DNA of 63,197 nucleotides from Parcubacteria group bacterium GW2011_GWC2_48_17 (GTDB taxonomy: Bacteria; Patescibacteriota; Minisyncoccia; Phycocordibacterales; UBA10002), in assembly GCA_001003605.1 (NCBI GenBank), contig LCPL01000005.1, positions 1 through 63,197 of the forward strand, written 5' to 3'. Positions 3,583-61,713 of this stretch are shown here, piece by piece. The first letter of the stretch is position 1. The number at the start of each line of letters is the position of its first letter. A model generated the notes under the pieces. The model was not told the origin of the DNA and did not search any database. It saw nothing but the letters and a program-made list of their open reading frames with translations. The position numbers and the translations under genes were made by a program.

Positions 3583-3585
3583 TTA

Positions 3586-4107: not shown

Positions 4108-4935
4108 TTACTCCACGAGTATAAGAAGAAGCATCAAACCGAAACCGAGTACAATCGCAAAGAGCTGAATGACCGTGCGGCCAAACCCTTCTGTCTTATG
4201 AAGCTCCGGCACCAGGTCGGAACCAGCGATGTAAATGAACGCGCCGGCCGTGAATGCCGTTGCGACAGGTACGAAATTCTCCACCCCCTCGCCCAAGACA
4301 AGTACGAGCGCGACTCCTAAGAATGCCGATAAGGCCGTAAAGAAATTCCAAAGAAGCGCTTTTCCGCGCGACCAGCCAGCGTGGATGAGCAGGCCGAAGT
4401 CCGCGATCTCCTGCGGGATTTCATGAAACACCACGGCAATTGTCGTCGCGACACCAACCTCCACACTGACCAGAAAACTCGCGCCAATAATGATGCCGTC
4501 TATCGCGTTGTGCACGAAATCGGCGGATAGAATGAGCGCGCCAAGACGCTTTGGCGCATGGTCATGAAGCGTGAGTGTGTCCGCGGATTCTTCATGCACC
4601 CCATGACAGTGGTGCCAATACAGGAATTTTTCAAGCGCGAAAAATAGCAGGATGCCGGACATGAGAGCGATGCCGGTAGTAACTTTGCCTATCCCGCTCC
4701 CGAGCGCTTCGGGAATGAGGTGAATGAAGGCGTCGCCAAAAAGCGCGCCGGTCGCAAGACCCACGAACAGGAACACTATGCGCTTCAAAGCCGCCTCGCG
4801 CATCGCTATCGCGACGAGGCCGGAAAAGGAAACGAGACTCACTATCGCGACTGCTCCGATGGCGTATAAGAAAGCCATACCGAAAGGATACCCTATTTGA
4901 CGCCACTCTTCCATCGTCGGGATGTGGAATCGCAA
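4108..4935 (-). CDS. zupT: ZIP family divalent metal transporter
   Basis: 275 aa polytopic membrane protein with the ZIP signatures HNAIDGIIIG and HEIPQEIADFGLL. Confidence 0.8.
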   Translation of the reverse strand: MRFHIPTMEEWRQIGYPFGMAFLYAIGAVAIVSLVSFSGLVAIAMREAALKRIVFLFVGLATGALFGDAFIHLIPEALGSGIGKVTTGIALMSGILLFFALEKFLYWHHCHGVHEESADTLTLHDHAPKRLGALILSADFVHNAIDGIIIGASFLVSVEVGVATTIAVVFHEIPQEIADFGLLIHAGWSRGKALLWNFFTALSAFLGVALVLVLGEGVENFVPVATAFTAGAFIYIAGSDLVPELHKTEGFGRTVIQLFAIVLGFGLMLLLILVE

Positions 4936-5007: not shown

Positions 5008-6186
5008 TTATATTGCGGCGAGCCCCCTGGAAAGGCCGGCGATAATATCCGAGACGTCCTCAAACCCAAGCGAGAGCCGGAAGAAGCTGTCTCCGATTCC
5101 GAGCGACCGCCGTACGTCGCTCGGAAGACTTTTGTGGCTCATAAGTGGGGGGTACGCGAGAATAGTCTCCGGACTCGCTAGACTCTCGGCGTAAACAATT
5201 GGACCTTCCTTTCTCGCGAAATCCACAAATGTTTTGAGTTTTTCCAGTCGTGTTTCCGTAAGTTCAAACGAGAGCACCCCGCCGTAACCGTGTCGCATCT
5301 GCCGTTTGGCGACCATGTGCCCGGGATGCGAAGGCAGACCTGGATAGAGCACCCGCTTCACCGTGTGGCTTTCGGAAAGAAACTTCGCCACGCGCATGGC
5401 GCTCTCACTCACTTGATTCCACCTTATCTGAAGCGTCTTCACCCCTTGAAGCACTCTATAGCACTCGTCGGGCGAGAGCACCGCCCCCATGGTCTTTAAC
5501 ATGAAGACCAGTCTTTCATAGAGCGACGCGTCTTTGGTGACGACCGCTCCGCCGAGAATATCGTTGTGTCCCGCAATGTATTTGCTCAAGCTGTGAATGA
5601 CGGTGTGCACGCCGTACTCAAAGGGCCGCGTGGTGCACGGCGGGGCGAAGGTTCCGTCAACGACAAACGGAATCGCTGTCTCTCGGGAAACCTTCGCCAC
5701 GAGCGCGAGGTCAATAACATGTAGGGACGGATTGGTAGGCGTCTCTACCCACAGCCATTTTGTGTTCGTTAGGATAGACTCGCGAATGCCTGCTTCTGAG
5801 CTGAAGTTGGCATAGCTTGCCGTAATGCCGAAACGATGGAGTAGTCCATCCAAGAGGCGAAACGTTCCTCCGTACACCTCCTCACAGCAGAGGACATGGT
5901 CCCCCGGCGAGAGTGTGAGCAAAAAGGCCGTTTCGGCGGCGAGGCCGGAGCCGAAGAGTACCGCCTTCCCCCCTCCTTCAAGGATTGCCAGCTTTTCCTC
6001 AAGCTTGTCGCGGGTCGGATGCTTCCCCCGGCTGTATTGGTAGGTCGCTTCCACGCCGAAGGTCGCTTGGGCGAAGGTTTTGCTGCGAACGAGGACGGGC
6101 GCTATCGCGCCGGTCGCCTCATCAGGAGCTTCTCCGGCATGCACGAGCAAGGTTGAGAATCCGGGCGAGTGTTTTGTAGTGTTCAT
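5008..6186 (-). CDS. PLP-dependent Cys/Met metabolism enzyme (cystathionine gamma-synthase, beta-lyase or methionine gamma-lyase family)
   Basis: 392 aa. The layout is conserved for this family, including the PLP-lysine region SLSKYIAGHND and the N-terminal STLLVHAG motif. Confidence 0.8.
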   Translation of the reverse strand: MNTTKHSPGFSTLLVHAGEAPDEATGAIAPVLVRSKTFAQATFGVEATYQYSRGKHPTRDKLEEKLAILEGGGKAVLFGSGLAAETAFLLTLSPGDHVLCCEEVYGGTFRLLDGLLHRFGITASYANFSSEAGIRESILTNTKWLWVETPTNPSLHVIDLALVAKVSRETAIPFVVDGTFAPPCTTRPFEYGVHTVIHSLSKYIAGHNDILGGAVVTKDASLYERLVFMLKTMGAVLSPDECYRVLQGVKTLQIRWNQVSESAMRVAKFLSESHTVKRVLYPGLPSHPGHMVAKRQMRHGYGGVLSFELTETRLEKLKTFVDFARKEGPIVYAESLASPETILAYPPLMSHKSLPSDVRRSLGIGDSFFRLSLGFEDVSDIIAGLSRGLAAI

Positions 6187-6749
6187 TTTTATGTTCTGTT
6201 TTTCTTGATGATTTGAAACGATACCCGTCGTTCCAGAAGAGCCGTGAGTCGTTCCTGTGAGGTCACACCGACCGATTCATCCTTGAAGACGCTAAAACGC
6301 GCGGTCCCGGCACGCAATATGCCGAGGCCCCGTATCATTGCCTCTCGGCTCGAAAATCGTGTCCGAGCAAAGATGGACTTTCTAAAAAGAAATGCGAACC
6401 ACATAGATTGTTGTCAACGAACACACCGCCCATAATCGGGCGGTGTATCAAGGAGATATTCCAAAAACTGAAACGTCGAGAGTCAGTTGTATCTTTCCCC
6501 GCGGGGCGGGGCTGGAATTGGCACTTTATCCTTACCAAAATGGAAGGGCAAGTTGCCGATGGAGCGTCGGGCCATAACCCTTCATATCTCCACACTCTTG
6601 ATACACTCGTGTATTTTCTGCTTCTATCTTATGCTCGCGCGTATGCAATGTCAAGCCGATTTCGTGATTTTCTTTTTCTTGACGCGCTCCTTAGTAGACG
6701 CTGTTAGAACTACTTTTGAGCGGCTCAACAAGCCCATAATGCATTCCGA

Positions 6750-8413: not shown

Positions 8414-8448
8414 AAGGAAAACAAACTGCGTCGCAGTTTGTTTTCCTT
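8414..8448. terminator. bidirectional hairpin terminator
   Basis: AAGGAAAACAAACTGCG-TC-GCAGTTTGTTTTCCTT lies between the tRNA and the DUF2283-like gene. Confidence 0.6.
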
Positions 8449-9174: not shown

Positions 9175-9196
9175 AATAGCTAACAGCTATTATGAC

Positions 9197-9471
9197 CGCG
9201 GGGTGGAGTAACAGTAACTCGCAAGGCTCAAAATGGGCTGAACTCGGTGAAGCCTCATCTGCCAGATGGCGGATTGGTAATACCGAGCCAAGCCCGCCCA
9301 AATTTTGTAGAATAAAATTTAGGCGGGAAGGTGTAGAGACTAGACGGCGAGCCCCCGCTTTGGACGGGGTGAAGGTATAGTCCAGACCACAAATTCGCTT
9401 AAGGCGAAATGACGAAAGTCATAGCGGTATGCATAACCTTGAGATTCCGGGTGCGATTCCCGGCCCCGCAA
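9197..9471 (+). tRNA. initiator-like tRNA-Met (CAU) interrupted by a group I intron
   Basis: Exon 1: CGCGGGG TG GAGT AACAGTA ACTC G CAAGG CT. Exon 2: CATAA CCTTG AGATT CCGGG TGCGATT CCCGG CCCCGCA A. The C1xA72 mismatch is as in bacterial initiator tRNA. Confidence 0.85.
9229..9431 (+). ncRNA. group I intron (IC3-like, ORF-less) in the anticodon loop
   Basis: The 5' exon ends in U33 and the intron ends in G. The core strings CCGAGCCAAGC and GAAGGTGTAGAGACTAGACGGC match my recollection of the Azoarcus tRNA-Ile intron. Confidence 0.8.
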
Positions 9472-9476
9472 CAATC

Positions 9477-9517
9477 AAAACAAAACCGCCTTCAAACTTC
9501 AAAGGCGGTTTTGTTTT
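9477..9517. terminator. bidirectional hairpin terminator
   Basis: AAAACAAAACCGCCTT-CAAACTTCA-AAGGCGGTTTTGTTTT directly follows the tRNA. Confidence 0.7.
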
Positions 9518-10371: not shown

Positions 10372-11799
10372 TTATTTCGACTCGAATTTCTTCCCGAGCT
10401 TGAATAGTAATTTATCATGCCCGTACCCTGCCATGATTTGAAACCCGAGCGGCAATCTCTTTCCGTCGCGCTCCACAAAACCTGATGGGATGCTGACCGC
10501 GGGAATAGCGCCTATATTTGCCGGTACCGTGAAGATGTCCTCCATGTACATGGAAAGCGGGTCTTTTGTCTTTTCTCCAATTTTAAACGCGGGTGTAGGT
10601 GTCGTGGGGATTGCTATGATGTCTACGCTCTTGAACGCTTGAGTAAATTCTTTCTCTATCATCGCGCGCACGCTAATCGCCTTTCTATAATACGCGTCGC
10701 GGTACCCCGACGAAAGCACGTATGCGCCAAGGAGAAGCCGGCGGCGCGCTTCCATGCCAAATCCTTCGGTGCGCGTCGCCACATAATCGCCAAGAAGCGA
10801 CTCTCCATCCTTATGGAACCCATACTTAACTCCATCAAAACGTGAAAGGTTGGTGGAAAGCTCCGCGGGCATTATCACGTAATACGCCGCGAGCGCGTGC
10901 GGTACCGTGGGAAGCGTAATATCTTGTACTCTGCATCCGAGCTTTTGGAGCCTTTCGACAGACTCGCTGAAATTGGCGAGAACATCCTCGTCAATACCTT
11001 TTGCATCAAGAAAATTCCTCGGCACGCCCACGACAAAGCGTTCAGCGTTTAGCGTAGAGCGTTTAGTATTGAGTTCGATAGAGGTGCTGTCGAGCACGTC
11101 CTTCCCTCTGATTGCGTCAAACAAAATCTCACTGTCTTCCACAGTCTTTGTGATGGGTCCGATGATGTCAAGCGACGAGCCCATGGCAATGATTCCGTGG
11201 CGGGAAATGGAACCGTAGGTCGGCTTACTTCCGACCACTCCGCAAAAAGCGGCAGGCTGGCGCACTGAACCGGCCGTGTCGGTCCCAAGAGACGCGAGGG
11301 CAAGGTCGGCGCCGACCGCGGCCGCGGCTCCTCCAGAAGAGCCACCGGGAACACGGCTGGTGTCGTATGGATTTCTTGTCGGACCGAAGTAGCTCGTCTC
11401 CGTGGAACTCCCCATGGCAAACTCGTCCATATTGGTGCGACCGAGCACCACCACCCTTTCCGCTTTGAGCTTTGAAATAGCAGTGCTGTCGTACGGAGCG
11501 ACATATCCTTGGAGTATCTTCGAAGACGCGCTTACTTTTTTGCCCTTCATTAGAATATTATCCTTAAGCGCGATTGGAATACCGGTAAGCATTACGGCTT
11601 TCCCGGCTTTGATGAGTCGGTCCGCTTCTTTTGCCTGTTCCCGCGCGTCATCAAAAACTTCCAGATACGCATTCAGTCCCGCGTTTTTCTTTTCAATCTC
11701 CGAAAGATACGCTTCGGACAGCTCGAGGGCGGAATACTCGCCATGTATGAGAGCGTCGTGAGCTTTTTTAATTGTTAGAGTTTTGAGGTCAATAGACAT
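10372..11799 (-). CDS. gatA: Asp/Glu-tRNA amidotransferase subunit A
   Basis: Amidase signature GGSSGGAAAAV and conserved GatA layout. The ATG at 11799 (MSIDLK) is preferred. The 12 extra codons of the longer ORF are encoded by the GTGTAGCG repeat. Confidence 0.9.
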   Translation of the reverse strand: MSIDLKTLTIKKAHDALIHGEYSALELSEAYLSEIEKKNAGLNAYLEVFDDAREQAKEADRLIKAGKAVMLTGIPIALKDNILMKGKKVSASSKILQGYVAPYDSTAISKLKAERVVVLGRTNMDEFAMGSSTETSYFGPTRNPYDTSRVPGGSSGGAAAAVGADLALASLGTDTAGSVRQPAAFCGVVGSKPTYGSISRHGIIAMGSSLDIIGPITKTVEDSEILFDAIRGKDVLDSTSIELNTKRSTLNAERFVVGVPRNFLDAKGIDEDVLANFSESVERLQKLGCRVQDITLPTVPHALAAYYVIMPAELSTNLSRFDGVKYGFHKDGESLLGDYVATRTEGFGMEARRRLLLGAYVLSSGYRDAYYRKAISVRAMIEKEFTQAFKSVDIIAIPTTPTPAFKIGEKTKDPLSMYMEDIFTVPANIGAIPAVSIPSGFVERDGKRLPLGFQIMAGYGHDKLLFKLGKKFESK

Positions 11800-11802
11800 A
11801 AA

Positions 11803-11868
11803 ACGTGTAGCGTGTAGCGTGTAGCGGAGAATCATCCTGGCGCTATACGTTACACGTCTTGCGTTACA
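11803..11868. repeat. intercistronic word-repeat hairpin (GTGTAGCG)n ... (CGTTACAC)n
   Basis: CGTGTAGCGTGTAGCGTGTAGCG - loop - CGCTATACGTTACACGTCTTGCGTTACAG fills the gatC-gatA spacer. Confidence 0.75.
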
Positions 11869-12602: not shown

Positions 12603-14665
<2,063 letters not shown>

Positions 14666-14666
14666 T

Positions 14667-15209
14667 TTAGTATCGCACCCTCAACGCTCTTTCCACTCTA
14701 GCGGGATTTGGTCCGACTCCGCAATCATTTCTGCCGCGAGATTCTATCACAGTAAAACCGGAAACGGTCTTGCCGACCGTGACTATCGCGCAACCCTTAG
14801 GCGTAAAATCGAGCGTGAATGTGCTCGTTGCCGCGGCAGTATTGCCGCTAACAAAAGACACTGAAACATTTGGTGCGCCGTTACAGCCAATAAAAGCGCG
14901 CCCTATGTCGTCGTAGGCAGACGGAAATACGAGTTCGGTCTTCCCTGCATTGATATCCCAATAAAGCGCGCACTCGATTCCAGTGTCAGCGGAAAAAAAC
15001 GCGTATTCGGATTCCTTGCCGGCCACTGAAAGAAGAATTTCCCTTATAGACATATGCGCGATTGCGAGGCCAAGGGAGAAAAGGAGGCTCGCGACCAGCA
15101 CGGCAAAGAGGATGGTGAAGCCCGAAGAAGCGTTTAGCGTGGAGCGTTTAGTGGAATAGTCGTAGACTGCGTTTAGAAGGTACGCGCATTTGTGTATTTC
15201 TCTTTTCAT
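14667..15209 (-). CDS. pilin-like protein (minor pilin or pseudopilin)
   Basis: The ASSG/FTILFAVLVASLLF hydrophobic N-terminus resembles a class III signal but lacks Glu+5. The long leader MKREIHKCAYLLNAVYDYSTKRSTLNASSG is shared with 15930..16592. Confidence 0.6.
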   Translation of the reverse strand: MKREIHKCAYLLNAVYDYSTKRSTLNASSGFTILFAVLVASLLFSLGLAIAHMSIREILLSVAGKESEYAFFSADTGIECALYWDINAGKTELVFPSAYDDIGRAFIGCNGAPNVSVSFVSGNTAAATSTFTLDFTPKGCAIVTVGKTVSGFTVIESRGRNDCGVGPNPARVERALRVRY

Positions 15210-15244
15210 TTTTTTACTAACCGCTTTACGCTAACCGCTAGACG

Positions 15245-15929: not shown

Positions 15930-16592
15930 CTAGTTTTCAACATCCAACAGTCTCTGCGATACCATCGTTTCAATGCCAAAGCTCGATACTGTCTTGCTTT
16001 TGCCCTGCACAGAACCTTTCACTAGGATAAGAACGCGCGGCTGCTCTTTGTCCGAAGTTAAGGTTCCGTCAACGTAAAAGTTCAGTTGCTCGATATGAAT
16101 CTCTGGCGAGGTGATTGGCACGAATGTCGCGGGGTCAGCGAGAAGTCCTTCCTCTCCCGCTCCCACGACTGCCCTGTCAATCGTGCCGTAACTTTCAGTC
16201 ATAGGTGTGTATTTATACACCATACGTTTCCCATTGCGAGCCGTAAAGATAATTGAGGAGGCGGGATTTTGGGCGCAGTCGCGTGTTTCTGTAAGAGTGC
16301 CTTCTGTTATGTCGCAGTGGTAAAGAAAGCCGGTGCGAAGATTTCTCGAGATGTTTTCAAACGCGAAGTAAAGATTATTGACCACGGTCTTCTGTGAGCG
16401 GGCTTTGTGATTTGCTTCGAGGAGCGAAGCGAGACTACCGACTGATATGACCATGATAACCAGAAAAATACCAAACGCCACTATCATCTCCACGAGGGTA
16501 AATCCAGAAGAAGCGTTTAGCGTATAGCGTTTAGTGGAATAGTCGTAGACTGCGTTTAGAAGGTACGCGCATATGTGTATTTTTCTTTTCAT
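15930..16592 (-). CDS. type IV pseudopilin
   Basis: Prepilin motif SSG/FTLVEMIVAFGIFL with a 30 aa leader almost identical to that of 14667..15209. Confidence 0.7.
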   Translation of the reverse strand: MKRKIHICAYLLNAVYDYSTKRYTLNASSGFTLVEMIVAFGIFLVIMVISVGSLASLLEANHKARSQKTVVNNLYFAFENISRNLRTGFLYHCDITEGTLTETRDCAQNPASSIIFTARNGKRMVYKYTPMTESYGTIDRAVVGAGEEGLLADPATFVPITSPEIHIEQLNFYVDGTLTSDKEQPRVLILVKGSVQGKSKTVSSFGIETMVSQRLLDVEN

Positions 16593-16627
16593 GTTTTTAC
16601 TAACCGCTAGACGCTAATCGCTAACCG

Positions 16628-17344
16628 CTATTTAATGGATATTTGCCCAGTGTTGGCAACCTCGACTACCCGCTTATCTCCCGACGGAGAAATGACATAT
16701 ATTCGTGCCGCTTTATATTGATGACCAAAAACGCTTTGATTTGTCTTAATGATAGCATCAGGATTCGGACGCAAGAATGTGACGTCAAGATAAGTAATCG
16801 CTGGATTCGACGCGGGTAAAGAGAGCGTGTTGCATTCCTCATTCTTCTCGCTATCTGGAGCATCCCGTCCCAAATCTCCAGTAGGAAGTACTCCGCAAAA
16901 TTTGTATATGCGGTTTCCCTTCTCCAAAAGAAAGACGTTCATGCATTCGGTGGCACTAAGACATCCTGTAGTGTTGTACGCCGTCCCGTAAGACCCGTTT
17001 AGGACTGCGTCGCCACTCTCGCCTCCTTGGTCCGCAAAAAGCGCGTACGTGTTTAAGCTCTCGGAATCAAAGTGCAGTCCATATCCAACGTTGAAAGTCC
17101 CGGCCCCTCCGCCTTGGAATTCGTGAACGCTCACGCCGTAGCTTTGCGCCTGACGCAGTGATAAGGCGAGTTCGTACGCAAGCGTGGTAACAAAGAGTTG
17201 ATTGCTAACTTTTCTGTACGATAAAAGTATGAGAGTGGCTATGGTGCCAAAGAGCGCTATGGCGACTAGAAGCTCGACGAGCGTGAAGCCCCTTCGGGGA
17301 GAGAAGGTAGAAAGTAGAGGGTAGAGGGTAGAATGAGATTTCAT
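16628..17344 (-). CDS. type IV pseudopilin
   Basis: The internal ATG at 17344 gives MKSHSTLYPLLSTFSPRRG/FTLVELLVAIALFG. The longer ORF to 17626 overlaps pilD and is rejected. Confidence 0.7.
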   Translation of the reverse strand: MKSHSTLYPLLSTFSPRRGFTLVELLVAIALFGTIATLILLSYRKVSNQLFVTTLAYELALSLRQAQSYGVSVHEFQGGGAGTFNVGYGLHFDSESLNTYALFADQGGESGDAVLNGSYGTAYNTTGCLSATECMNVFLLEKGNRIYKFCGVLPTGDLGRDAPDSEKNEECNTLSLPASNPAITYLDVTFLRPNPDAIIKTNQSVFGHQYKAARIYVISPSGDKRVVEVANTGQISIK

Positions 17345-17358: not shown

Positions 17359-18213
17359 CTAGAAGCTGACAGCCAAAAGCTGATCTAAACCGGTTACATC
17401 CCACCCGAATAAATACACCAGAAACAAGCCGAATACCAAAAATGGGCCAAGTGGAAGTTCTGTCTTTGGACCAAGAGCGCTTAGTTTCATTTTGTAATTC
17501 GGTGACAGGATGTTCGACAAAAATGGCAGAAAGGCTTTGAGTAGAAGCGCGCCGAGAGCGAATGCCGCGCCGATCCAAAAACCGACAATAAGCGCGGAGA
17601 GACCCTTCGCGAAGCCCAAAAGCCACGGAAACAAGACGACGAGCTTCGCGTCACCGAGGCCCATCGCTCGCCCGCTTGAGAAAAACCACAGTAGAGCGAA
17701 AGGAGCCGCGATAAGAAAACCAACCCAGAAATCAAAGAAGTATGAAGTATGAAGTATGAAGTATGAATAAAGGAAAAGAAAAAAGGAAACAAATATGGCG
17801 CCGTAGACAAGTCTGTCGGGGATGATTTTGTGCCTGAAATCGTAAACGGAGATGGCGATAAGGAGAGACCAGAAGCAGAGAGAAAGTAGAAGGTAGAAGG
17901 TAGAAGGTAGAGAAAGAGAAGAAAGAATGAGGGAAGATTCTTTCCAGGCCACGCCGAAAAATACGAGGCCGGTGATAAGCTCGACCAAAGGGTATTGGAT
18001 GGAGATACTTCCCTTGCAGCCGAGGCACCGTCCTTTTTGGACCAAAAAGCTAAACAGCGGAAGAAGTTCAAACCAGCTCAAGGTCTTGCCGCAAGATAAA
18101 CATTTTGAGCGTCCGTTAAGTCCCTGCGCGCCATGTCGCAGGACGATTACATTCAGAAAACTTCCGACAATCGTGCCAAGCGCAAAGAAAAACAGGAGAA
18201 TAATTGTGGTCAT
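17359..18213 (-). CDS. pilD: prepilin peptidase / N-methyltransferase
   Basis: Cys motifs CLSCG and CLGCKG, and catalytic Asp contexts YDFRHKIIPD and GLGDAKLV. Polytopic membrane protein. Confidence 0.85.
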   Translation of the reverse strand: MTTIILLFFFALGTIVGSFLNVIVLRHGAQGLNGRSKCLSCGKTLSWFELLPLFSFLVQKGRCLGCKGSISIQYPLVELITGLVFFGVAWKESSLILSSLSLPSTFYLLLSLCFWSLLIAISVYDFRHKIIPDRLVYGAIFVSFFLFLYSYFILHTSYFFDFWVGFLIAAPFALLWFFSSGRAMGLGDAKLVVLFPWLLGFAKGLSALIVGFWIGAAFALGALLLKAFLPFLSNILSPNYKMKLSALGPKTELPLGPFLVFGLFLVYLFGWDVTGLDQLLAVSF

Positions 18214-18366: not shown

Positions 18367-18840
18367 TTAATTATTCACGTCGTAGGTCCATGGGTCAGCT
18401 GTATCAGCGCCACTGAACTTTGTTCCGCCGCCCCAAGCAGTAGAGTTTGCGTCCGAATCGGCGGTATCAAGGGTAGTTTGAGTCATTGTTTGCTCCATGG
18501 TCGCCCCCAGATGATACTTAGTTGGGCTAGCGAGCGGGTCCCAAGAGAACTTGTAAGCTGACTGGTCTTTCGGGTCGGTTGGGAGTACTGGGAGCGAAGC
18601 TCCTGAACCCGAACCAACGAGCGACGAAAGCGCTACCGGATAAGAACCGTTGGCATCATAATAAAGCTCCATTGCGATTTGAATCTGCTTGAGGTCCGCT
18701 ACGCGGCGAGTATCGCGGGCCTTCGTTCGCGCGCTGTTAAGAGAAGCGAGTACCACGGAAGAAAGGATGCCGATGATTGCTATGACAACCAAAAGCTCAA
18801 TCAGCGTGAAACCGCGCGAGTTCTTCGAAGAAGAATTCAT
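18367..18840 (-). CDS. pilA: type IV major pilin
   Basis: The ATG at 18840 gives MNSSSKNSRG/FTLIELLVVIAIIGILSSV, a canonical class III signal with Glu+5. The gene has its own promoter-like sequence and terminator. Confidence 0.85.
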   Translation of the reverse strand: MNSSSKNSRGFTLIELLVVIAIIGILSSVVLASLNSARTKARDTRRVADLKQIQIAMELYYDANGSYPVALSSLVGSGSGASLPVLPTDPKDQSAYKFSWDPLASPTKYHLGATMEQTMTQTTLDTADSDANSTAWGGGTKFSGADTADPWTYDVNN

Positions 18841-19046
18841 TTGGGTGAATCCCTTGTGATTCGCCTTAGAGAAGAATTTCGACATACATAATAAAATTAT
18901 CGAGTAAAGGGCGTTAACCCATTTGTTGCGTCTTCACTCGGACGAAACGAAAGTCAGAAGAATTTTCATTTCGATCCTTGCTGGCCGCAATAACAACTTA
19001 AAGGCTCTCTTCCGACCGGTAAGAAAGCGCCACTTATTTTGACTCC

Positions 19047-19112: not shown

Positions 19113-20318
19113 CTACTCCCCTCCAACAATGCTGTAAATCGGCATAAGCACCGAAGCGAGCAAAAATCCCACCCCAAGGCCAAGAAGAACGATTAGGGCG
19201 GGCTCAATGAGCGACACGATGGTGTCAACCGCGTTCGTTACCTCACGCCGATAAAACCGCGCCATGGTTTCAAGGATATTGCCGGTTTCCCCGCTTTCCT
19301 CTCCCACCCTCATCATTTGAATCATGATGCCTGGAATAACACGACTATGGGAAAACGCATCGGAAATTGAAGAGCCGCCTTTAACTTCTTCCGCCGCGAG
19401 TATAATAGCTTTTTCGAAAATCGCATTATCCACCACTTCGGCCGTAATCTCAAGTACCCTTATTATGGGAATTGCCGCGGAAAGTTGCGTATGCATATTG
19501 TCGGAGATGCGTGAGAGATACAATTTTCTATATAGGTCACCAATATAGGGGAGTCGTATTTTAAGCTCGCTTAGCGCATAACGGCCGCCTTGTGTCCTTG
19601 AAAACCTCCATAGGAAGAGTCCGGCCACGATGAGAAGTACGAGCAAAAACCAGCCATAGTGAACGAAAAAGAAGCTCATGCCTAGCACAATTTTGGTATA
19701 GATTGGTATTTCCTGTCCGGATTCTATTAGAATTGAACTTATGCTAGGTATCACGGTCGTAAGCATTAGAATCATCACGCCGATAAATGTCACAATGACG
19801 AAAATTGGATAGACTAGAGCGCTCTTCGCCTTGGAAGTTACTTCATAGGTTCGTTCAAGATAGTCCGCCAAGAATCCGAATATCTTGTCGAGCCTTCCCG
19901 CCTCCTCGCCGGAACGCACCATGTTTACATAAAAACTGGAAAACGCTTGGGGATGTTTCCCCATTGCCTGCGAAATGGAGCTTCCACCCTGAAGGTCATC
20001 TGACACAGATGTGAGTACCTGTCGAAGCATTGGGTGGTCAATCTCACTAGCCAAGAGTCGGAATATTCTCATAGCCGAGACTTGCGCCTCAAATAGCGTG
20101 GATATCTGGCGCGAGAGAATAACGATATCCTTGCTTTTAATCCGCTTCCAAAAAGATAAATCGCGCTTAAAAATAGATGAACTCCCCGCAGGCGCGATGG
20201 TAGAAATTGTAAAACTTCGTTTCTGGAGCGCGTTAATAGCAACTTCTATGTTGAGAGCTTCAATACTCCCGTTTATAGCCCGTCCGGAGGAATCAGAGAC
20301 TTTGTAGATGAAGAGCAT
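19113..20318 (-). CDS. pilC: type IV pilus platform protein (GspF family)
   Basis: 401 aa with two GspF-type repeats and three TM segments. Confidence 0.85.
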   Translation of the reverse strand: MLFIYKVSDSSGRAINGSIEALNIEVAINALQKRSFTISTIAPAGSSSIFKRDLSFWKRIKSKDIVILSRQISTLFEAQVSAMRIFRLLASEIDHPMLRQVLTSVSDDLQGGSSISQAMGKHPQAFSSFYVNMVRSGEEAGRLDKIFGFLADYLERTYEVTSKAKSALVYPIFVIVTFIGVMILMLTTVIPSISSILIESGQEIPIYTKIVLGMSFFFVHYGWFLLVLLIVAGLFLWRFSRTQGGRYALSELKIRLPYIGDLYRKLYLSRISDNMHTQLSAAIPIIRVLEITAEVVDNAIFEKAIILAAEEVKGGSSISDAFSHSRVIPGIMIQMMRVGEESGETGNILETMARFYRREVTNAVDTIVSLIEPALIVLLGLGVGFLLASVLMPIYSIVGGE

Positions 20319-20319
20319 G

Positions 20320-20388
20320 GCGTGTAGCGTGTAGCGTGTAGCGTGTAGCGTGTCTGACTGTTTTGGACTTGCGTTACACGTTATACGA
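20320..20388. repeat. intercistronic word-repeat hairpin (GTGTAGCG)n ... CGTTACACGTTATACG
   Basis: GCGTGTAGCG x4 - loop TGTCTGACTGTTTTGGACTT - GCGTTACACGTTATACG. The arm ends 2 nt from the pilC ATG. Confidence 0.75.
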
Positions 20389-20401
20389 TTTGAGTTTCGC
20401 G

Positions 20402-21460
20402 TTATAACAACCGGTCCATTATCTGCGGATTAGGCGAATAGGCAAAAGCATTTTCGGCGGTAATCTCCCCTCTACGCACCAAATCCGCGAGGCTTCTGTT
20501 CATATCGGTCATACCCTGCTCAAGTCCGGTTTCTATAACGGTATTTATTTCATGCGTTCGCTTCTCTCTTATAAGATTAGCGACGGCATTATTCGCGATA
20601 AGGAGTTCATAAGCGGGTATTAGTCCTCCGGATATTCTCGGCACCAAGCGCTGCGAGAAAACTCCCGTGAGAGAAGAGGCAAGCTGAAGTCGTATCTGCT
20701 CTTGCTGCCCAGGAGGAAAGATATCGATTATGCGGTCTATCGACTGAGCCGCGTTGTTTGTGTGAAGCGTAGAAAATATAAGGTGTCCGGTTTCAGCGGC
20801 GGTTACAGCTGAGCTGATTGTTTCCTGGTCGCGCATCTCTCCTATGAGCGCGACATTTACGTCTTCTCGAAACATAGATATGAGCGCCGTGCGGAAATCT
20901 TTCGTGTCAATGCGCACTTCGCGCTGGTCAATAATAGAGAGCTTCTCCTCATATACATACTCTACCGGGTCTTCAATCGTCATGATGTGTTCGGAGCGGC
21001 TTCCATTAATTATTTCTATAAGAGAAGCCAGTGTGGTTGATTTTCCGTGCCCCATTGGCCCCACAACAAGAAAAAAGCCTTGTCTTTTTTTGGTAAACTG
21101 CCCAAGCGTCTCTGGAAGATTGAGTTCTTTTAGGCTCGGGATCTTTCTGGGGATTAGCCGAAGCGCGATACCGATGTTTCCTTTTTCGAAATAGGCATTG
21201 CCTCTGAAGCGTACTCTGTCGCCAAAATTATATGAAAAATCGATTTCTTTATTCTGCAAGAAAAGTCTCCTATCCTCCGAAGAAAGAATTCCTTCAATAA
21301 ACGCCGACAAATTATCCGCAGTAAGCAAAGCCTTCTTTACGAGAGGCGTAATCCCTCCAGAAACGCGGAGCACGGGGTGACGGCCTACCAAGAGGTGGAG
21401 GTCGGACGCGCCCTCGTGAATGGTCGTTTCGATGAGATTTGTTAAAAGTTCTTTGGACAT
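20402..21460 (-). CDS. pilT: twitching motility retraction ATPase
   Basis: 352 aa with Walker A GPMGHGKSTT, an Asp box, Walker B and the His box of the PilT/GspE family. It lacks the long N-terminal domain of PilB. Confidence 0.85.
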   Translation of the reverse strand: MSKELLTNLIETTIHEGASDLHLLVGRHPVLRVSGGITPLVKKALLTADNLSAFIEGILSSEDRRLFLQNKEIDFSYNFGDRVRFRGNAYFEKGNIGIALRLIPRKIPSLKELNLPETLGQFTKKRQGFFLVVGPMGHGKSTTLASLIEIINGSRSEHIMTIEDPVEYVYEEKLSIIDQREVRIDTKDFRTALISMFREDVNVALIGEMRDQETISSAVTAAETGHLIFSTLHTNNAAQSIDRIIDIFPPGQQEQIRLQLASSLTGVFSQRLVPRISGGLIPAYELLIANNAVANLIREKRTHEINTVIETGLEQGMTDMNRSLADLVRRGEITAENAFAYSPNPQIMDRLL

Positions 21461-21535
21461 AGCGTGTAGCGTGTAGCGTGTAGCGTGTAGCGCGACTCTG
21501 GCGTTATACGCTTTACGTTACACGTTTTGCGTTAC
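21461..21535. repeat. intercistronic word-repeat hairpin (GTGTAGCG)n ... (CGTTAYACG)n
   Basis: AGCGTGTAGCG x4 - loop - GCGTTATACGCTTTACGTTACACGTTTTGCGTTAC lies between the receiver gene and pilT. Confidence 0.75.
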
Positions 21536-21930
21536 TTTAGCTTCTTAGCTAAAATGGCTTTGACCTCTGCCACCACTTCCGATGGAGTAGCCGTTGCTTT
21601 CACTATATATCCGTCAACTCCTAGACTTTTGGCGCGTTCAATATCAGCGGATTGACTTGTGTTCGTGAGAACGAGTATCGCGGAATCTGGAGAAAGATGT
21701 TCATCTCTTAGCTTTTTTATGAATTCAAGCCCGTCCATAGTCGGCATTATAAGGTCACATAGTATCGCGTTTGGAGAATAGCCATCACGAAGCGTCCGTA
21801 GCGCAGTATCCGCGTTATTTGCCGTTTCAATGTCAAATCCGGAATTCTTGAATTTAAGCGCGTACATGTTCAAAAGGAACTGGTCATCATCAAGAAGAAG
21901 GAGTGAGGTCTTTTTCGGTTTAGTTTCCAT
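21532..21930 (-). CDS. single-domain response regulator (CheY-like receiver)
   Basis: 132 aa with LLLLDDD, the phospho-acceptor context LCDLIMP and a conserved Lys (YIVKA). Confidence 0.85.
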   Translation of the reverse strand: METKPKKTSLLLLDDDQFLLNMYALKFKNSGFDIETANNADTALRTLRDGYSPNAILCDLIMPTMDGLEFIKKLRDEHLSPDSAILVLTNTSQSADIERAKSLGVDGYIVKATATPSEVVAEVKAILAKKLK

Positions 21931-22048
21931 ATGCCTATTATAGCAGATACCAATATGCTAATGGGTACGAATGATACTAATAATACGAATACCGCGATTT
22001 CCTATTGGTACTATTCGTTTCATTAGTATACATTGGTATATTTAGTAT
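21931..22048. repeat. AT-rich word-repeat hairpin (TACGAAT / GGTAT words) with a TATAAT 6 nt from the receiver ATG
   Basis: The spacer between the pilB stop and the receiver start is filled by complementary arms. The minus strand reads GCTATAATAGGCAT-ATG. Confidence 0.6.
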
Positions 22049-23761: not shown

Positions 23762-23860
23762 GGCTGATTTTTTTAACGAGCGGAGCGAGTTTTTAAAAAT
23801 CGCCACCCCGTTAAATCCCGCTCCGCGGGAATCCGCCTTTGGCGGATTATTTAACGGGGT
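23762..23860 (-). promoter_or_regulatory. shared 5' leader cassette (three-way junction), copy A, upstream of pilB
   Basis: The minus strand reads ACCCCGTTAAATA-[ATCCGCC AAA GGCGGAT]-[CCCGC GGA GCGGG]-ATTTAACGGGGT-GGCGATTTTT...AAAAATCAGCC-ATG. Confidence 0.65.
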
Positions 23861-23922
23861 AATGTTCGGCAGCCGCAGTTTCGATATTCAGAGACTGAAT
23901 CCCGAAACTGCGGGCCGAGCCA

Positions 23923-25004: not shown

Positions 25005-25123
25005 CCCGTTAGAAGCAGATCGCGACCACGCGAACCTGCTTAACTACCTTCTTTAGTGATTCGACCATGGTATTGAAGTGATACATAGAAATAATACTTT
25101 AGGCGATTGCGGCTTCTAACGGG
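25005..25123. repeat. long-range inverted repeat CCCGTTAGAAGC ... GCTTCTAACGGG, copy 2
   Basis: It starts 1 nt upstream of the pilO ATG. The arms are the same as at 3438..3536. Confidence 0.6.
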
Positions 25124-25138
25124 ACTCATGTATAAATG

Positions 25139-25771: not shown

Positions 25772-26020
25772 GGTAGGAAAGCACAAATCTTGGAAAACTG
25801 CCCAAAGCACAGACTGCACAATATCCCCGCCTGCGCCAACCTGTCTGCCGTGCCAACGGCACAGGCAGGGGCTATGGCGGGCAGGCAAACAAAGCCACAA
25901 ACTACTCAAAACACAAACGGTTGGGAAGTTTGGGACAGTGTGTCTTGTCTGGGTTTTTGTGTACTGTGCTTTGTGCTTTTATCCCTTAATTGTACCGTAC
26001 TTCTGCAAAGAACATATCCC
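25772..26020. repeat. strand-asymmetric long hairpin (CACAAA / TTTGTG word family) with embedded GC hairpin
   Basis: An A/C-rich arm (AAAGCACAAA, CCCAAAGCACAGACTGCACAAT) faces a G/T-rich arm (TGTGTACTGTGCTTTGTGCTTTT). In the centre is CTGCCGTGCCAACGGCACAGGCAG. Confidence 0.65.
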
Positions 26021-27184: not shown

Positions 27185-27280
27185 AATGACAGTATAACAA
27201 ATTACTAAATAACTCATAACTGAATAACGGGAGCGGAATACGCTTGGGTCATTCAGTTATTCAGTGATATGTTATAGGTT

Positions 27281-31664: not shown

Positions 31665-31699
31665 CGTAGGGGTACGATAAAAGATGCCAAAATTGTATC

Positions 31700-32405
31700 A
31701 ACCAACCTATCCCGCGCGCAAGCGCGTATCTGGTGGGACTCCGTAAACTATTTTGCGCTAAGAGTGCGTATGTCCCTAACTATGAAATCAATTACCACCG
31801 TCAGAGGCGGTGGTATGAACTTCAACCTAAAAGGCATTAGCTGGTAACCCAGTACGTCACGTTCCTGCTGTCATTTTACTTACTTCCGTATCTGCTCCTC
31901 ATCAGCTCCGATACAGATACGTGCTCACTCCGCGTCTATCTGACCGAGCATCATGATGGATCGGTGTTTCTCTGTCCGGTATTTAGCAATAGTATGCTAT
32001 AGCATACTATTGCTAAGTGCCAGATGACTTGAATACACCTGCAGAGCCTTGTGTTAGAGTCACCGCCGGAGGCGGTGGCTTAGAAGAATCAAAATATTTC
32101 TTAGCATTTGCTCACGGCCGTGAGTAAATGCTAAATGGAGAATACCCTAGTAGCACTTGAATCAAAATAAAGGGTACTAAACCGCAGGGCAAGCCCTGCA
32201 CCCATAATGAGTTCGCAGACTCGCGCTTCACCGCCCCGAGGGGCGGGGTAGTACACCCTTTGATTCGACTTCGTTTTGACGCCGTGCAAACTAGCAAGTT
32301 GTCGTGGCTTTCCCTACGGGAACGGTACACCTTTCGCAGGTGAAGACACCTGGCTCAAGGTCTTGCGGAAGCTCCATGCATTCGCTTCCTCACCTCGCTT
32401 GTCGA
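31700..32405 (-). other. ORF-free, hairpin-dense region; possible RNase P RNA with insertions (uncertain)
   Basis: The minus strand contains GAGGAAG...GAGCCAGGTGTCTTCACCTG...TTCCCGTAGGGAAAGCCACGAC in the same order as E. coli M1 GAGGAAAG...GCCAGGUAACGCCUGG...GGGAAACCCACGAC. The canonical AGUCC of P4 is not seen. Confidence 0.3.
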
Positions 32406-32458
32406 AATAAGAAATTCTTGAAGCGGTGGCAAGAATAGGATATAGTTCACATTCTAGT

Positions 32459-35288: not shown

Positions 35289-35430
35289 AATTCCAAATCA
35301 CAATTCCCAAATCACAAACAATGCACAAATTATCCAAACTCTCCAAACCAAATTTTCGTCTATGTTTTGAGTGACTGTGTTTTGTTTGGATTTTTGGATA
35401 CTGTGTTTTGTGTTAGGGTCGTAAACATAC
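35289..35430. repeat. strand-asymmetric long hairpin (CACAAA / TTTGTG word family)
   Basis: AATCACAATTCCCAAATCACAAACAATGCACAAATTATCCAAACTCTCCAAACC faces TTTTGAGTGACTGTGTTTTGTTTGGATTTTTGGATACTGTGTTTTGTG. Confidence 0.65.
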
Positions 35431-37912: not shown

Positions 37913-37915
37913 CTT

Positions 37916-37998
37916 ATTAGCTATTTAGCTTACTAGCTTTCTAGATTAGTAGTCAGGATTTTCCTTAAAAGCTAAGAAGCTGATAAGCTAGAAAGCTC
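37916..37998. repeat. intercistronic word-repeat hairpin (TTAGCT / AAGCTA words)
   Basis: CTTATTAGCTATTTAGCTTACTAGCTTTCTAG - loop - AAAAGCTAAGAAGCTGATAAGCTAGAAAGCTC ends 5 nt before the tdh ATG. Confidence 0.75.
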
Positions 37999-38003
37999 AT
38001 ACT

Positions 38004-39218: not shown

Positions 39219-39320
39219 CATACGAAACAACGAATTATGCGAATATACGAATTTGCTACGAATAAGATTTCGGATTCGTAGCCATTCGTTGGTTTTTAAT
39301 TCGTATTTTCGTATATCACC
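39219..39320 (+). repeat. CGAATA/TTCGTA word-repeat element abutting the kbl start
   Basis: CATACGAAACAACGAATTATGCGAATATACGAATTT-GCTACGAAT-AAGATTTCGG-ATTCGTAGC-CATTCGTTGGTTTTTAATTCGTATTTTCGTATATCACC-ATG. Confidence 0.75.
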
Positions 39321-40565: not shown

Positions 40566-40574
40566 GGAGGGACA

Positions 40575-40646
40575 AGAGCTGTTTAGCTTATTAGCTTGTT
40601 AGAAAAGATGGGCTAGGAAGCTAGTGGGCTAGGAAGCTAAAAAGCT
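40575..40646. repeat. intercistronic word-repeat hairpin (TTAGCT / AAGCTA words)
   Basis: GCTGTTTAGCTTATTAGCTTGTTAG - loop - GGCTAGGAAGCTAGTGGGCTAGGAAGCTAAAAAGCT ends at the yvcK ATG. Confidence 0.75.
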
Positions 40647-41636: not shown

Positions 41637-41713
41637 TGTAACGCAAAACGTATATCGCAAAGCGTAAAGTTATTGTAATTCGCATCTGACGTTACACGAT
41701 ATACGCTACACGT
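41637..41713. repeat. intercistronic word-repeat hairpin (GTGTAACG / CGTTACAC words)
   Basis: GTGTAACGCAAAACGTATATCGC - loop - GACGTTACACGATATACGCTACACG. Confidence 0.7.
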
Positions 41714-41723
41714 TCTATATGTC

Positions 41724-55965: not shown

Positions 55966-55970
55966 GCTCC

Positions 55971-56710: not shown

Positions 56711-56890
56711 ATGAAAACCAACAAATCATTCACAAAGCGTCTCAGGGTAACCAAGAACGGCAAAATCATGATGCGTGGCAAGGGACAGAATCATTTCAAC
56801 GCCAAGGCGAGGCGTCGAGCCCAGCTCGGAAGGAAGCGCATGGTTTCCTTGCATATGAAGAAAGGAGATATCGCCCGTTTTTTAAGTTAA
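56711..56890 (+). CDS. rpmI: 50S ribosomal protein L35
   Basis: 59 aa ORF below the track threshold: MKTNKSFTKRLRVTKNGKIMMRGKGQNHFNAKARRRAQLGRKRMVSLHMKKGDIARFLS. It lies between infC and rplT. Confidence 0.85.
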   Translation: MKTNKSFTKRLRVTKNGKIMMRGKGQNHFNAKARRRAQLGRKRMVSLHMKKGDIARFLS

Positions 56891-57003
56891 ACATACGAAC
56901 AACGAATTTTACGAATATACGAATTGCTACGAAACAGAAGTGACTTAATTCTTATTCGTAGCCATTCGCAGGACTTTAATTCGTATTTTCGTATAGCAAA
57001 TTT
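56891..57003 (+). repeat. CGAATA/TTCGTA word-repeat element abutting the rplT start
   Basis: CATACGAACAACGAATTTTACGAATATACGAATT-GCTACGAA...TTCGTAGC-CATTCGCAGGACTTTAATTCGTATTTTCGTATAGCAAATTT-ATG. Confidence 0.75.
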
Positions 57004-61051: not shown

Positions 61052-61626
61052 TTACTCGGATGTTCCCTAGAACGAATCTAGGTGGGTGTTCTCAATTGAA
61101 TGTAAGAGAACCAATGAAGGTTCTGCAGCAAGCAATGATTCGAACTCCCTGAAAAATTGTTATAGAGGTAACATCTCAAGTAACCTGAATCAGTATAACA
61201 TGTAACCGATAACACGTAACTGGAACTGGAACCAGAGCAGATTTCTTGATAATTTCAAGCGTCTTGATTTCTGGTTACCGTTACTAGTTCCAGTTACAAG
61301 TTCGGCTGGAGTACAACCAATCCGCCACCCACATGGGGTTGGCGGACGGTTTCATGGTCCCCCGACAAGCATAGAGCGCATATGTTTATTCTTATCCCGC
61401 ACCGTAGCCCAAGGGCTTGCGTGTAGCAAGGGATGATTTTTTAAATTATTTTAGGCTCACTTATCAGGAGACAGTGTCATCATTATACCCCTCATATAAC
61501 GAAACAAAGGTCAAGAAGTTCATAACCTGTTTATAAAAAGTGGAAAGCAATAAAAATCTCTCGCCTGCGTATGGAAGCAAGACTGTGGATAATTGAGGCC
61601 GGCAAAAGACTTGACAAGTTTCAGGA

Positions 61627-61713
61627 CATACGAAACAACGAATTATGCGAATAAGAACAATTCTTCATTCGTAGCCATTCGTTGGACTTTAATTCGTATT
61701 TTCGTATAGCGGA
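61627..61713 (+). repeat. CGAATA/TTCGTA word-repeat element, downstream flank of ndk
   Basis: CATACGAAACAACGAATTATGCGAATAAGAACAATTCTTCATTCGTAGCCATTCGTTGGACTTTAATTCGTATTTTCGTATAGCGGA. Confidence 0.75.

Follow-up and report, generated by a model that had tools for sequence, protein, structure and literature searches.

The window analysed here comprises 63,197 nucleotides (nt) of contig LCPL01000005.1 from Parcubacteria group bacterium GW2011_GWC2_48_17 and carries type IV pilus genes, among them pilT and pilC. The subject of this study is the hairpin-forming repeat element between these two genes, together with its relatives elsewhere. Pfam assigns a PilT-type ATPase to 20402-21460 and a PilC/T2SSF protein to 19113-20318, both on the minus strand. 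The spacer from the pilT stop to the pilC ATG is filled by a copy of the GTGTAGC/GTAACG family (20319..20401, minus strand). On the plus strand, 20320-20388 consists of (GCGTGTA)x4.9 with 100% identical units according to Tandem Repeats Finder (TRF), a loop of 17 nt and then GCGTTACACGTTATACG. Read as mRNA, the order is TAA|CGCGAAACTCAAATCGTATAACGTGTAACGC, the loop, (CGCTACA)x4.9 and GCC|ATG.

Folded as plus-strand RNA, this spacer reaches -36.0 kcal/mol (z -4.08), and 0/200 shuffles are as low. Folded as mRNA it reaches -13.2 kcal/mol (z -0.33) with 75/200 shuffles as low. As single-stranded DNA neither strand is significantly folded. The (CGCTACA) array is two units (14 nt) shorter in the same-species contigs L006 and L222 (contigs used for comparison are designated by L and a number), which are ~99.5% identical elsewhere. 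The copy number of the focal array varies within the population, as in simple-sequence contingency loci.

The original prediction had listed seven intercistronic spacers filled by such hairpins, namely gatC-gatA, minor pilin-ligA, pilT-pilC, response regulator-pilT, glmS-tdh, kbl-yvcK and the spacer at 41637. All 7/7 show the described anatomy of tandem 7-8 nt words, a loop and a near-complementary word array. The array also ends close to the next gene as claimed, with distances to the ATG of 4, 7, 1-2, 0, 5, 0 and 10 nt in the order given above. Pfam agrees with the gene names that had been proposed (gatC/gatA, glmS, tdh-like, kbl-like and CofD/YvcK-like). Moreover, the window has 22 spacers of 35-150 nt between co-directional genes, and at least 13 of them contain a word hairpin, with the start codons of some genes corrected before counting. 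The remaining ones hold a one-armed array (1), other palindromic repeat families (3) or nothing obvious (5). The double word GTGTAGCGTGTAGC occurs 14 times with up to 2 mismatches where 0.17 occurrences are expected. TRF finds 24 tandem arrays of period 7 in the window versus 0.77 in locally shuffled sequence (shuffle maximum 2).

Folding energies were compared to shuffled controls. With dinucleotide shuffles, 6/7 of the listed spacers give z values from -2 to -7 on at least one strand, but z is ≤ -2 on the mRNA strand in just 4/7, the focal spacer and the one at 41637 falling short. A raw sliding-window scan of minimum free energy was set aside as confounded by GC content. We also evaluated a set of 47 spacers that was not picked by eye; it contains every spacer of 40-230 nt in the syntenic region from pilM to gatA of the window and four related genomes. 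z is below -2 on at least one strand in 31/47 of these spacers (median z -2.7) compared to 3/47 length-matched coding controls (Mann-Whitney p about 1e-7). Word elements are also found beyond intercistronic spacers, i.e. in a divergent spacer, beside tRNA genes, in long non-coding stretches and inside coding sequence. The observation is confirmed and reaches well past the sites listed at first.

The elements belong to distinct families with dispersed copies. The ACGAAT family has three full and two half copies in the window, which have non-repetitive stretches such as ATTCGTAGCCATTCGTTGG and TAATTCGTATTTTCGTATA in common. These copies diverge chiefly by insertion or deletion of whole words close to the loop, and their outer arms are invariant. 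A homologue with a mean column identity of 75% is located in the spacer between pilB and the response-regulator gene (pilB-RR) of L215, a position non-orthologous to every copy in the window; PilC of L215 is 82% identical to PilC of the window. For the GTGTAGC family, 13 copies were collected from six contig sets. Arm 1 is near (GTA)TAACGCAAAACGTGTAACG(TATAACG), the loop is variable and arm 2 is (CGCTACA)3-5. Contig L144 carries this element, loop included, in three consecutive spacers (3874-3950, 4323-4407 and 4708-4785) of the ribosomal-protein operon S17-L14-L24-L5. All of them run from the TAA stop to the ATG, whereby the last codon and the TAA of the upstream genes lie within the first word GTATAAC. 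The loop of the L144 elements contains AAGAGGG/AAGGAGG, which resembles a Shine-Dalgarno (SD) motif, about 40 nt before the ATG.

The TTAGCT, CAAA/TTTG, GTAAC/GGAAC and CTGAATAA families recur at other loci in related genomes as well. CAAA/TTTG copies are found between pilM and pilN of L215 and, within the divergent left end of contig L208, at the tdh-kbl site, replacing the ACGAAT copy there. The related genome L007 uses CTGAATAA/TTATTCAG words in its pilT-pilC spacer, and in both L215 and L216 a GTAAC/GGAAC element precedes the promoter of the major pilin. In the 63 kb of the window at least four palindrome families are represented by 3-7 copies each, a multi-copy dispersal as known from repetitive extragenic palindromic (REP) sequences and REPINs. 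The comparison to REP/BIME elements made in the original prediction is apt in this respect, with dispersed multi-copy families at non-orthologous sites across species. Two family cores gave no match in viral contigs, so no phage carriage was seen.

Orthologous spacers show rapid turnover. The pilT-pilC spacer spans 77-97 nt from stop to start in all five syntenic species (PilC 70-100% identical). A comparison of these spacers, as had been proposed for checking the prediction, revealed five different word families in five species: GTGTAGC in the window, TTAGCT/AAGCTAAC in L215, TAGGC in L216, TTAAGAT in L217 and CCAACCA/TGGTTG in L218. The family likewise changes across species at the gatC-gatA, pilB-RR, x142-pilB and pilin-ligA spacers. 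At certain orthologous positions one species carries an element and another just an empty spacer of 2-16 nt. In Patescibacteria with a PilT identity of ≤ 68%, the pilT-pilC spacer is mostly 4-30 nt long, plain and without structure. Period-7 arrays are common just in the clade of the window and in a few scattered lineages. The homologues of PilT and PilC are from Patescibacteria, the relatives being named Ca. Taylorbacteria, Parcubacteria and Paceibacterota. A near-identical contig is assigned to Parcubacteria group bacterium GW2011_GWA2_47_64, and the same strain appears in many groundwater metagenome assemblies. In the contigs L005 and L208 identity drops abruptly from 100% to 75-95% at or next to a spacer, which may mark either recombinants or assembly chimeras; L220 lacks stretches of about 120 nt, apparently through errors of assembly.

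Slippage of heptamers is not restricted to spacers. More than half of the period-7 arrays (13/24) lie in coding sequence, namely in gatA, ligA, pilD, kbl and pilin leaders. Among the larger arrays, several have about 4 copies, consistent with an in-frame gain of 21 nt. One array in PilD is aligned to a gap of 6-7 residues in relatives, and (TTTTCAA)x4 in ligA codes for FQFSIFN. According to the summary of Mrazek et al. 2007 given in PMC4679880, the heptamer is the commonest long simple-sequence repeat unit in prokaryotes. The idea of a common generating mechanism, raised in the original prediction, is supported by the roughly 30-fold enrichment of heptamer arrays, by their in-frame presence within genes and by the polymorphism of one of them.

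In the minor pilins the module is located partly or wholly within the coding sequence. Two arrangements are seen. In pln2 and pln4 of the window, arm 1 is upstream, the ATG lies in the A-rich loop and arm 2 codes for the leader MKR.IH.CAYLLNAVYDYSTKR.TLNASSG|FT. In pln3 of the window, pln1, pln2 and pln4 of L215 and pln3 of L217, arm 1 has the ATG as its first word. This second type starts with ATGAATACTGAATTAAGAATTAAGGAAG (leader MNTELRIKE...), and its L215 copies have (ACTTCAT)x4 or (CCTTCAC)x4 before G|FT. The nucleotides of arm 1 are nearly identical among species and paralogues here. In one same-species contig the pln2 module (16480..16627) is exchanged from the first type to the second with a different word family. 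The prepilin cleavage site G|FT is the exact end point of the exchange, and about 99% identity is retained in the mature protein. No frame-shifting copy-number variant was found in the pilin leaders of 10 same-species contigs. The leader of type IV pilins is cut off by prepilin peptidase. Hence it is only weakly constrained, and modules consequently end at G|FT in pilins and at the ATG in ordinary genes.

In metagenomes, (GCTACAC)n arrays are often found directly 5' of a prepilin motif G|FT(L/I)xE in an open frame (L089, L130/L193, L132, L190, L192 and L174), some of them in contigs of 60% GC. Mixed and nested arrays exist as well: L198 alternates GCGGTTA and GCGTGTA, and the array of L200 is the loop of another word hairpin.

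The spacers lack SD motifs as stated in the original prediction, but this is a genome-wide property and not specific to spacers with hairpins. SD-like motifs precede 4/54 starts versus 15% of intragenic background positions, so an SD-type ribosome-binding site is not in use. The 20 nt before starts contain 16-18% G compared to 25% in coding sequence. Hairpins as a substitute for the SD sequence were considered and rejected, the whole genome being without SD motifs. The pilB-RR spacer ends in five species with an extended -10-like box (TGnTATA[A/C]T, 6-7 nt, ATG) that follows the word hairpin. In the window this box is TGCTATAAT-N6-ATG before the response-regulator gene (21931-21945), conserved in the five species. 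Judged from their position, the -10-like boxes 6-7 nt before the ATG suggest leaderless mRNAs at operon starts of this SD-less genome. Similar boxes were noticed before ftsH (TATAAT-N7-ATG, 49024-49040) and at 52058-52075 (TGCTATCAT-N6-ATG). A TA(C/T)AAT box directly follows the pilM stop and precedes the word hairpin there, and in L215 and L216 a word hairpin is placed before the major pilin promoter. The elements therefore sit between coupled cistrons as well as in 5' leaders and ahead of promoters, which argues against a single positional function.

Scans for known signals did not identify the hairpins. Consensus promoters and intrinsic terminators were tried for 9-28 kb and rejected, as their counts equal the shuffled expectation and no word hairpin is flagged. 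Classical terminators with GC stem and T-run are present elsewhere in the window (8414-8448, 9477-9517, 52548-52583 and 55970-56011). Rfam 15 at gathering threshold yields no hairpin match in the whole window, just tRNAs, a tmRNA and a SAM riboswitch; a permissive Rfam scan of 11.7-22.1 kb reports nothing at the hairpins.

Taken together, we consider 20320-20388 to be probably one copy of a dispersed, fast-changing family of imperfect palindromic repeats of ~60-150 nt, neutral or selfish in the manner of REP/REPIN sequences and miniature inverted-repeat transposable elements (MITEs). It is closer to REP/MITE-like repeats and heptamer microsatellites than to a dedicated regulatory RNA. Short palindromic repeats saturate the non-coding DNA of one Patescibacteria clade (Parcubacteria / Ca. 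Taylorbacteria-like). They have two inverted arms, in each of which a few units of 7-8 nt are strung together. We see two processes at work. Whole elements may reach new sites as copies or trade places, either through transposition-like mobilisation or through recombination that is ectopic or between strains; such copying would place one family at unrelated loci and in different species and put different families into orthologous spacers. Replication slippage of the 7-8 nt unit in addition expands, contracts and homogenises the arms, with the same bias inside genes. The span from stop to start may reflect a compact genome without SD sequences and with nothing else conserved in the sampled spacers. 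In such spacers purifying selection would begin at the stop and at the ATG, or at the cleavage site in pilins. Most copies would be neutral or selfish, their orientation possibly being filtered by constraints on translation initiation.

Several points weigh against this reading. Comparison of near-identical strains revealed neither a target-site duplication nor a site that is cleanly empty in one strain and filled in another, so that mobilisation is deduced rather than demonstrated. The contigs available for the species are close to clonal, and the apparent replacements in L005 and L208 could be chimeras of co-occurring strains. A Pfam scan of about 40 window proteins found no transposase, be it the REP-associated RAYT, IS200-like, with a Y1 domain or other. 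A stop-to-start hairpin kept at the same spacer in five species fits a selected function too, and the presence in a ribosomal-protein operon would likewise be expected of one. Finally, complementary unit arrays in both arms are without a mechanistic account.

The strands differ in a manner that needs to be treated by family. The original prediction had noted that the arms of the minus-strand pilus and gat operons pair with G-U wobbles on the plus-strand RNA but with A-C mismatches on the mRNA. The difference itself is real, as the focal z values show, but it is not a property of minus-strand operons. In the GTGTAGC family, pairing of the arm-1 word (GTGTAACG) with the arm-2 word (CGCTACAC) leaves one A.C mismatch on the mRNA and a G.U pair on the other strand. 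The same mismatch per word is present in 12/12 copies from the six contig sets, and the weakly folding strand is the mRNA. All 12/12 copies folded are more stable in antisense, with means of -39.0 versus -19.4 kcal/mol in sense. Other families are symmetric or better folded on the sense strand. Among the 47 spacers sense is better in 14 and antisense in 15 (difference >3 kcal/mol; Wilcoxon p 0.90). With other families symmetric or sense-favoured and the spacers unbiased as a whole, the asymmetry is an inherited, fixed trait of one family. Within operons the GTGTAGC family is seen in one orientation, with the (CGCUACA)n array before the start codon. This constancy may reflect selection, as a G-poor, unstructured (CGCUACA)n would suit the G-poor initiation regions; the reverse orientation would set a strong hairpin and an array with 43% G before the ATG. 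In metagenomes, (GTGTAGC)3 arrays are oriented 43 versus 11 in raw counts and 21 versus 11 without arrays inside a single open frame. 22/43 of the co-oriented arrays are inside one long open frame, TAG occurring in all frames on one strand, and some of the reverse-orientation cases are other sub-families.

Selection on mRNA structure next to start codons, one option left open by the original prediction, does not hold as a rule. The spacers show no strand bias (14 versus 15), the focal mRNA is essentially unfolded and the elements occupy every kind of non-coding position. A general structure of the mRNA strand is rejected by the same comparison of 47 spacers. More specifically, the elements could be selected cis-acting RNAs that bring the stop and the next start together for termination-reinitiation coupling, or that set relative cistron levels by offering sites for RNase III-type processing or by stabilising 3' ends. 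The span from stop to start speaks for this, with outermost pairs ≤ 9 nt from both codons in the clearest intercistronic cases, as does the occurrence in a ribosomal-protein operon. Five species also keep an element at one and the same spacer although its sequence has changed completely. Internal cistrons moreover need another initiation route if SD sites are missing, and a Haemophilus influenzae heptamer repeat that forms an arm of a 5'-UTR hairpin cleaved by RNase III sets a precedent (PMC12721329). Yet the transcribed strand is no more stable in the 47 spacers, the focal and 41637 copies are unfolded on the mRNA, distant relatives run the same operon with spacers of 4-30 nt, and the same families are found before and after promoters, in divergent spacers, beside tRNAs and inside coding sequence. 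The families are also multi-copy and dispersed like selfish or neutral repeats. We therefore regard selected cis-acting RNAs as unlikely. Quite unlikely is also a more far-reaching version, in which stop-hairpin-start modules would be operon punctuation for reinitiation and the 7-nt copy number in the start-proximal arm or in cleaved pilin leaders a heritable, reversible rheostat or switch for each cistron, including the pilus genes on which these episymbiont-type bacteria presumably rely to contact their hosts. If true, translation would be controlled through repeats across the genome in a way for which no counterpart has been described.

Narrower functions fare less well. It is highly doubtful that the GTGTAGC family acts in antisense, with its strong G-U hairpin and the U-rich ACGUUUUGCGUUA ending or blocking antisense transcription into operons. 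The energy difference in 12/12 copies, the focal antisense z value, the mismatch kept in every word of every copy and the constant orientation to genes would all agree with such a role, but a simple terminator scan does not flag the GTGTAGC sites, the asymmetry is limited to one family and a conserved mismatch is also expected from descent from one founder element. Very unlikely in our view are contingency loci, where gain or loss of 7-nt units would adjust the expression of type IV pilus genes or turn it on and off (pilC, pilT and the minor pilins with arrays in their leaders) and thereby cause phase variation of the attachment apparatus. Housekeeping genes (gatC-gatA, glmS-tdh and ribosomal proteins) have the same elements between them, the arrays are short (3-5 units) and the pilin leaders of the 10 same-species contigs lack frame-shifting variants. 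These points outweigh the perfect arrays directly before the pilT and pilC starts and in minor pilin leaders, where one unit shifts the frame, the two-unit polymorphism before pilC, the metagenome (GCTACAC)n arrays that often directly precede prepilin G|FT motifs and the precedent of H. influenzae hmw (PMC12721329). A purely local origin, by heptamer slippage and intrastrand template switching that copies arm onto arm with no copying between sites, is very improbable and appears largely refuted as the sole process by sequence comparison: long non-repetitive stretches and loops are common to copies at unrelated loci and species, and whole modules are swapped within species. A local origin would be in line with the strong genome-wide signal of heptamer slippage, genes included, with arrays that are perfect next to the ATG and degenerate in the partner arm, and with the copy-number polymorphism.

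The dispersed repeat family that we favour resembles several known systems. Closest by behaviour are REP/BIME/REPIN sequences (Bertels & Rainey 2011, PMC3116915). Like these, the elements are short imperfect palindromes of several families, multi-copy and mostly extragenic, often between co-transcribed genes, with copies that are dispersed and variable between close relatives. Hairpins are predicted for most of the 47 spacers as RNA, but not for the focal copy as single-stranded DNA. Unlike REP/REPIN, each arm is built of 7-8 nt units in tandem, variable in number, instead of two REP units. Moreover the elements are A/T-rich rather than GC-rich, run into pilin leaders and fill most sampled spacers of a streamlined genome of the Candidate Phyla Radiation (CPR), and no RAYT gene was seen among the proteins scanned. 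The 5' tetranucleotide GTAG of REP sequences is contained in the GTGTAGC and ATTCGTAGCC words and absent from TTAGCT and CAAA; by chance it is expected in most stretches of 80 nt.

Heptamer direct repeats with the sequence TAACTGA are intergenic in Beggiatoaceae (MacGregor 2015, PMC4679880). As there, 2-6 heptamer copies lie within a few nt upstream of starts in spacers without a canonical ribosome-binding site, and some ORFs (open reading frames) and ribosomal-protein operons are included. TAACTGA is however a single, direct word with 1 inverted case in 170, whereas our elements comprise many families and nearly every array has an inverted partner. In the 5'-UTR of the H. influenzae adhesin gene hmw1A, (ATCTTTC)n makes up one side of a long hairpin that RNase III cuts, and changes of the repeat number require both hairpin and RNase III (Rapun-Araiz et al. 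2025, PMC12721329). Here as there a heptamer repeat is a hairpin arm on the transcript between upstream signals and the ATG, and repeat number varies in populations. The hmw1A repeat differs by being a single promoter-proximal locus with a G-rich, non-repeat partner arm and with cleavage and expression shown by experiment, compared to dozens of loci in our case, with repeats in both arms, known from sequence alone. TIGR arrays (TIGR-Tas, PMC12045711) have units of 36 nt with conserved edge and loop repeats, two variable spacers and an adjoining Tas gene with a Nop domain. They were rejected as a match, since the units here are 7-8 nt long and lack variable spacers, and no Nop/Tas-like protein was found among the window proteins scanned.

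MITE-like repeats such as pneumococcal BOX, Neisseria Correia, Rickettsia palindromic elements and cyanobacterial STRR are small non-autonomous palindromic or tandem intergenic modules. In BOX the middle module is repeated in tandem, Rickettsia palindromic elements are inserted into genes in frame and STRR are intergenic heptamer arrays. To our knowledge, the combination of inverted heptamer arrays is not a described feature of any of these families. Unlike MITE-like repeats, the elements show no signature of terminal inverted repeats with target-site duplication. Literature searches on repeats, hairpins, palindromes and SD sequences in Patescibacteria, CPR and Parcubacteria yielded no description of such elements. 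Patescibacteria genomes are thought to be streamlined and repeat-poor.

In a whole clade, fast-evolving palindromic heptamer modules occupy most sampled intergenic spacers and even reach into cleaved leaders and variable protein loops. This has practical consequences. Gene callers push ORFs into the arrays, as for gatA, which is called from 11835 rather than 11799. Public assemblies break or are mis-joined at the elements, leaving N-runs and apparent chimeras. Variable arrays could serve for strain typing. The elements also raise the questions how internal cistrons are translated without SD sites, by what means repeats move in genomes where few genes of mobile elements are known and whether pilus components undergo phase variation in putative episymbionts. 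With respect to N-runs, one in L001 (2446-2545) stands in place of the word hairpin at 21931-22048, and another in L003 (1351-1390) lies inside the response-regulator gene (window about 21755-21810).

Besides the focal element, the window contains the following copies, with energies in kcal/mol. Further members of the GTGTAGC family are found on the minus strand in the spacer between the response-regulator gene and pilT (21461..21531; (CGCTACA)x4.7 at 0 nt from the ATG; sense -21.1, antisense -42.7) and between gatC and gatA (11800..11863; sense -23.1, z -3.6; antisense -32.8, z -5.7). The gatC-gatA copy is homologous to the one at 21461 in arm 1 and at the beginning of the loop. A degenerate copy is located on the plus strand between the CofD/YvcK-like and the GNAT gene (41637..41723; sense -16.4, z 0.0; antisense -24.1); it is oriented to transcription as the minus-strand copies are. 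The GCGGTTAGCG/CTAAACGC sub-family forms a hairpin between the last minor pilin gene and ligA (14584..14666, minus strand; sense -36.6, z -6.4; antisense -37.5), whereby the ligA start at 14583 is backed by alignment to relatives. In the 5' module of a minor pilin (15100..15244, minus strand), arm 1 with GCGGTTAG words is upstream of the ATG at 15209, the ATG lies within the A-rich loop and arm 2 with CTAAACGC words codes for the cleaved prepilin leader up to G|FT. The same module belongs to a paralogous minor pilin (16480..16627, minus strand, ATG at 16592).

TTAGCT/AAGCTA hairpins are present on the plus strand in the spacer from glmS to the tdh-like gene (37913..38003; 8-nt words; sense -27.6, antisense -23.7) and from the kbl-like to the CofD/YvcK-like gene (40566..40646; sense -29.1, z -4.7; antisense -15.8). 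Arm 2 of the latter contains a perfect 16-nt duplication and abuts the ATG. The full copies of the ACGAAT/ATTCGT family are located between the tdh-like and kbl-like genes (39219..39320, plus strand; z -7.0 and -7.2), just 3' of the minus-strand gene 61714-62322 (61625..61713) and at 56885..57003, homologous to each other by alignment. The copies at 61625 and 39219 share the genomic strand, their flanking genes being on opposite strands. Half copies are at 3541-3585 and 62323-62375, and an ACGAAT/TACTAAT word hairpin follows the pilB stop (21931..22048, minus strand; sense z -2.9, antisense z -3.2).

The CAAA/TTTG family is represented by a long word hairpin (35289..35430, plus strand) and related copies at 60821-61010 and at 25940-26020, the latter with a single arm. 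A divergent spacer of 63 nt contains a CTGAATAA/TTATTCAG word hairpin (27194..27280), and a GTAAC/GGAAC hairpin within a long non-coding stretch (61170..61310; z -4.4 and -4.0). A TCTACCC-type heptamer array occupies the leader-coding part of a minor pilin with ATG at 17344 (17302..17333, minus strand). Arrays in frame are located in pilD (17737-17767 and 17881-17911), ligA (12993-13021), gatA (11037-11063) and kbl (40303-40332). Two more repeat families in the window are not built of tandem words (23859-23922, about 35976-36040 and 56610-56674; also 3441-3545 and 25020-25138). One of these non-word families, CCC(T)GTTAAATCCC...ATTTAAC(A)GGG, encloses two small GC hairpins and has the look of a three-way junction; the other, CCCGTTAGAAG...CTTCTAACGGG, pairs over a long range, with about 90 nt enclosed by the stem.

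The major pilin gene (18367-18885, minus strand) has a palindrome of ~30 nt in frame at the prepilin cleavage motif (18811-18846), flanked by duplicated GGnTTCAC. A palindrome at the cleavage motif is also present in pln2 of L217 (14393-15004). The inserts read ...KGFT-QMNSSSKNSRG-FTLIE in the window and ...RGFT-RTNFSPENSRG-FTLIE in L217 and are sequence-related despite the different genes and species. In ligA of the window (12603-14583, minus strand), 44 nt (AGCCTCTCCCGGAATTCAAGAAATTGAAACACGAAGTAACGCAG) at about 14378 are missing compared to four other same-species contigs. The loss shifts the frame, so that domain Ia is in a different frame from the rest of the protein; LigA is intact with 674 aa in the other same-species contigs. 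The gap is either a strain variant or an assembly error.

GC and AT skew of the window track transcription, the sense strand being rich in G and A, and flip with gene orientation at about 32 kb and 42 kb. A non-coding stretch of 793 nt (31665-32457) lies at the first flip. A gene resembling initiator tRNA is apparently split by a group I intron on the plus strand (9181-9478), with the 5' part CGCGGGGTGGAG... near 9195 and the 3' part ...GGGTGCGATTCCCGGCCCCGCAACA near 9455-9478. Rfam Intron_gpI scores 36.1 bits there (E 1.3e-7; 9181-9404), which is below the gathering score, and ARAGORN did not report the split tRNA. Further RNA genes and elements are a tRNA-Ile with anticodon UAU (46635-46709, minus strand), a SAM riboswitch (6486-6607, minus strand) upstream of a pyridoxal phosphate (PLP) enzyme of Cys/Met metabolism (5008-6186), and a tmRNA with an unusually long tag (AKTLISKAKSIVSPYFGERGLAFAYASA) adjoining smpB (49616-50038, plus strand).

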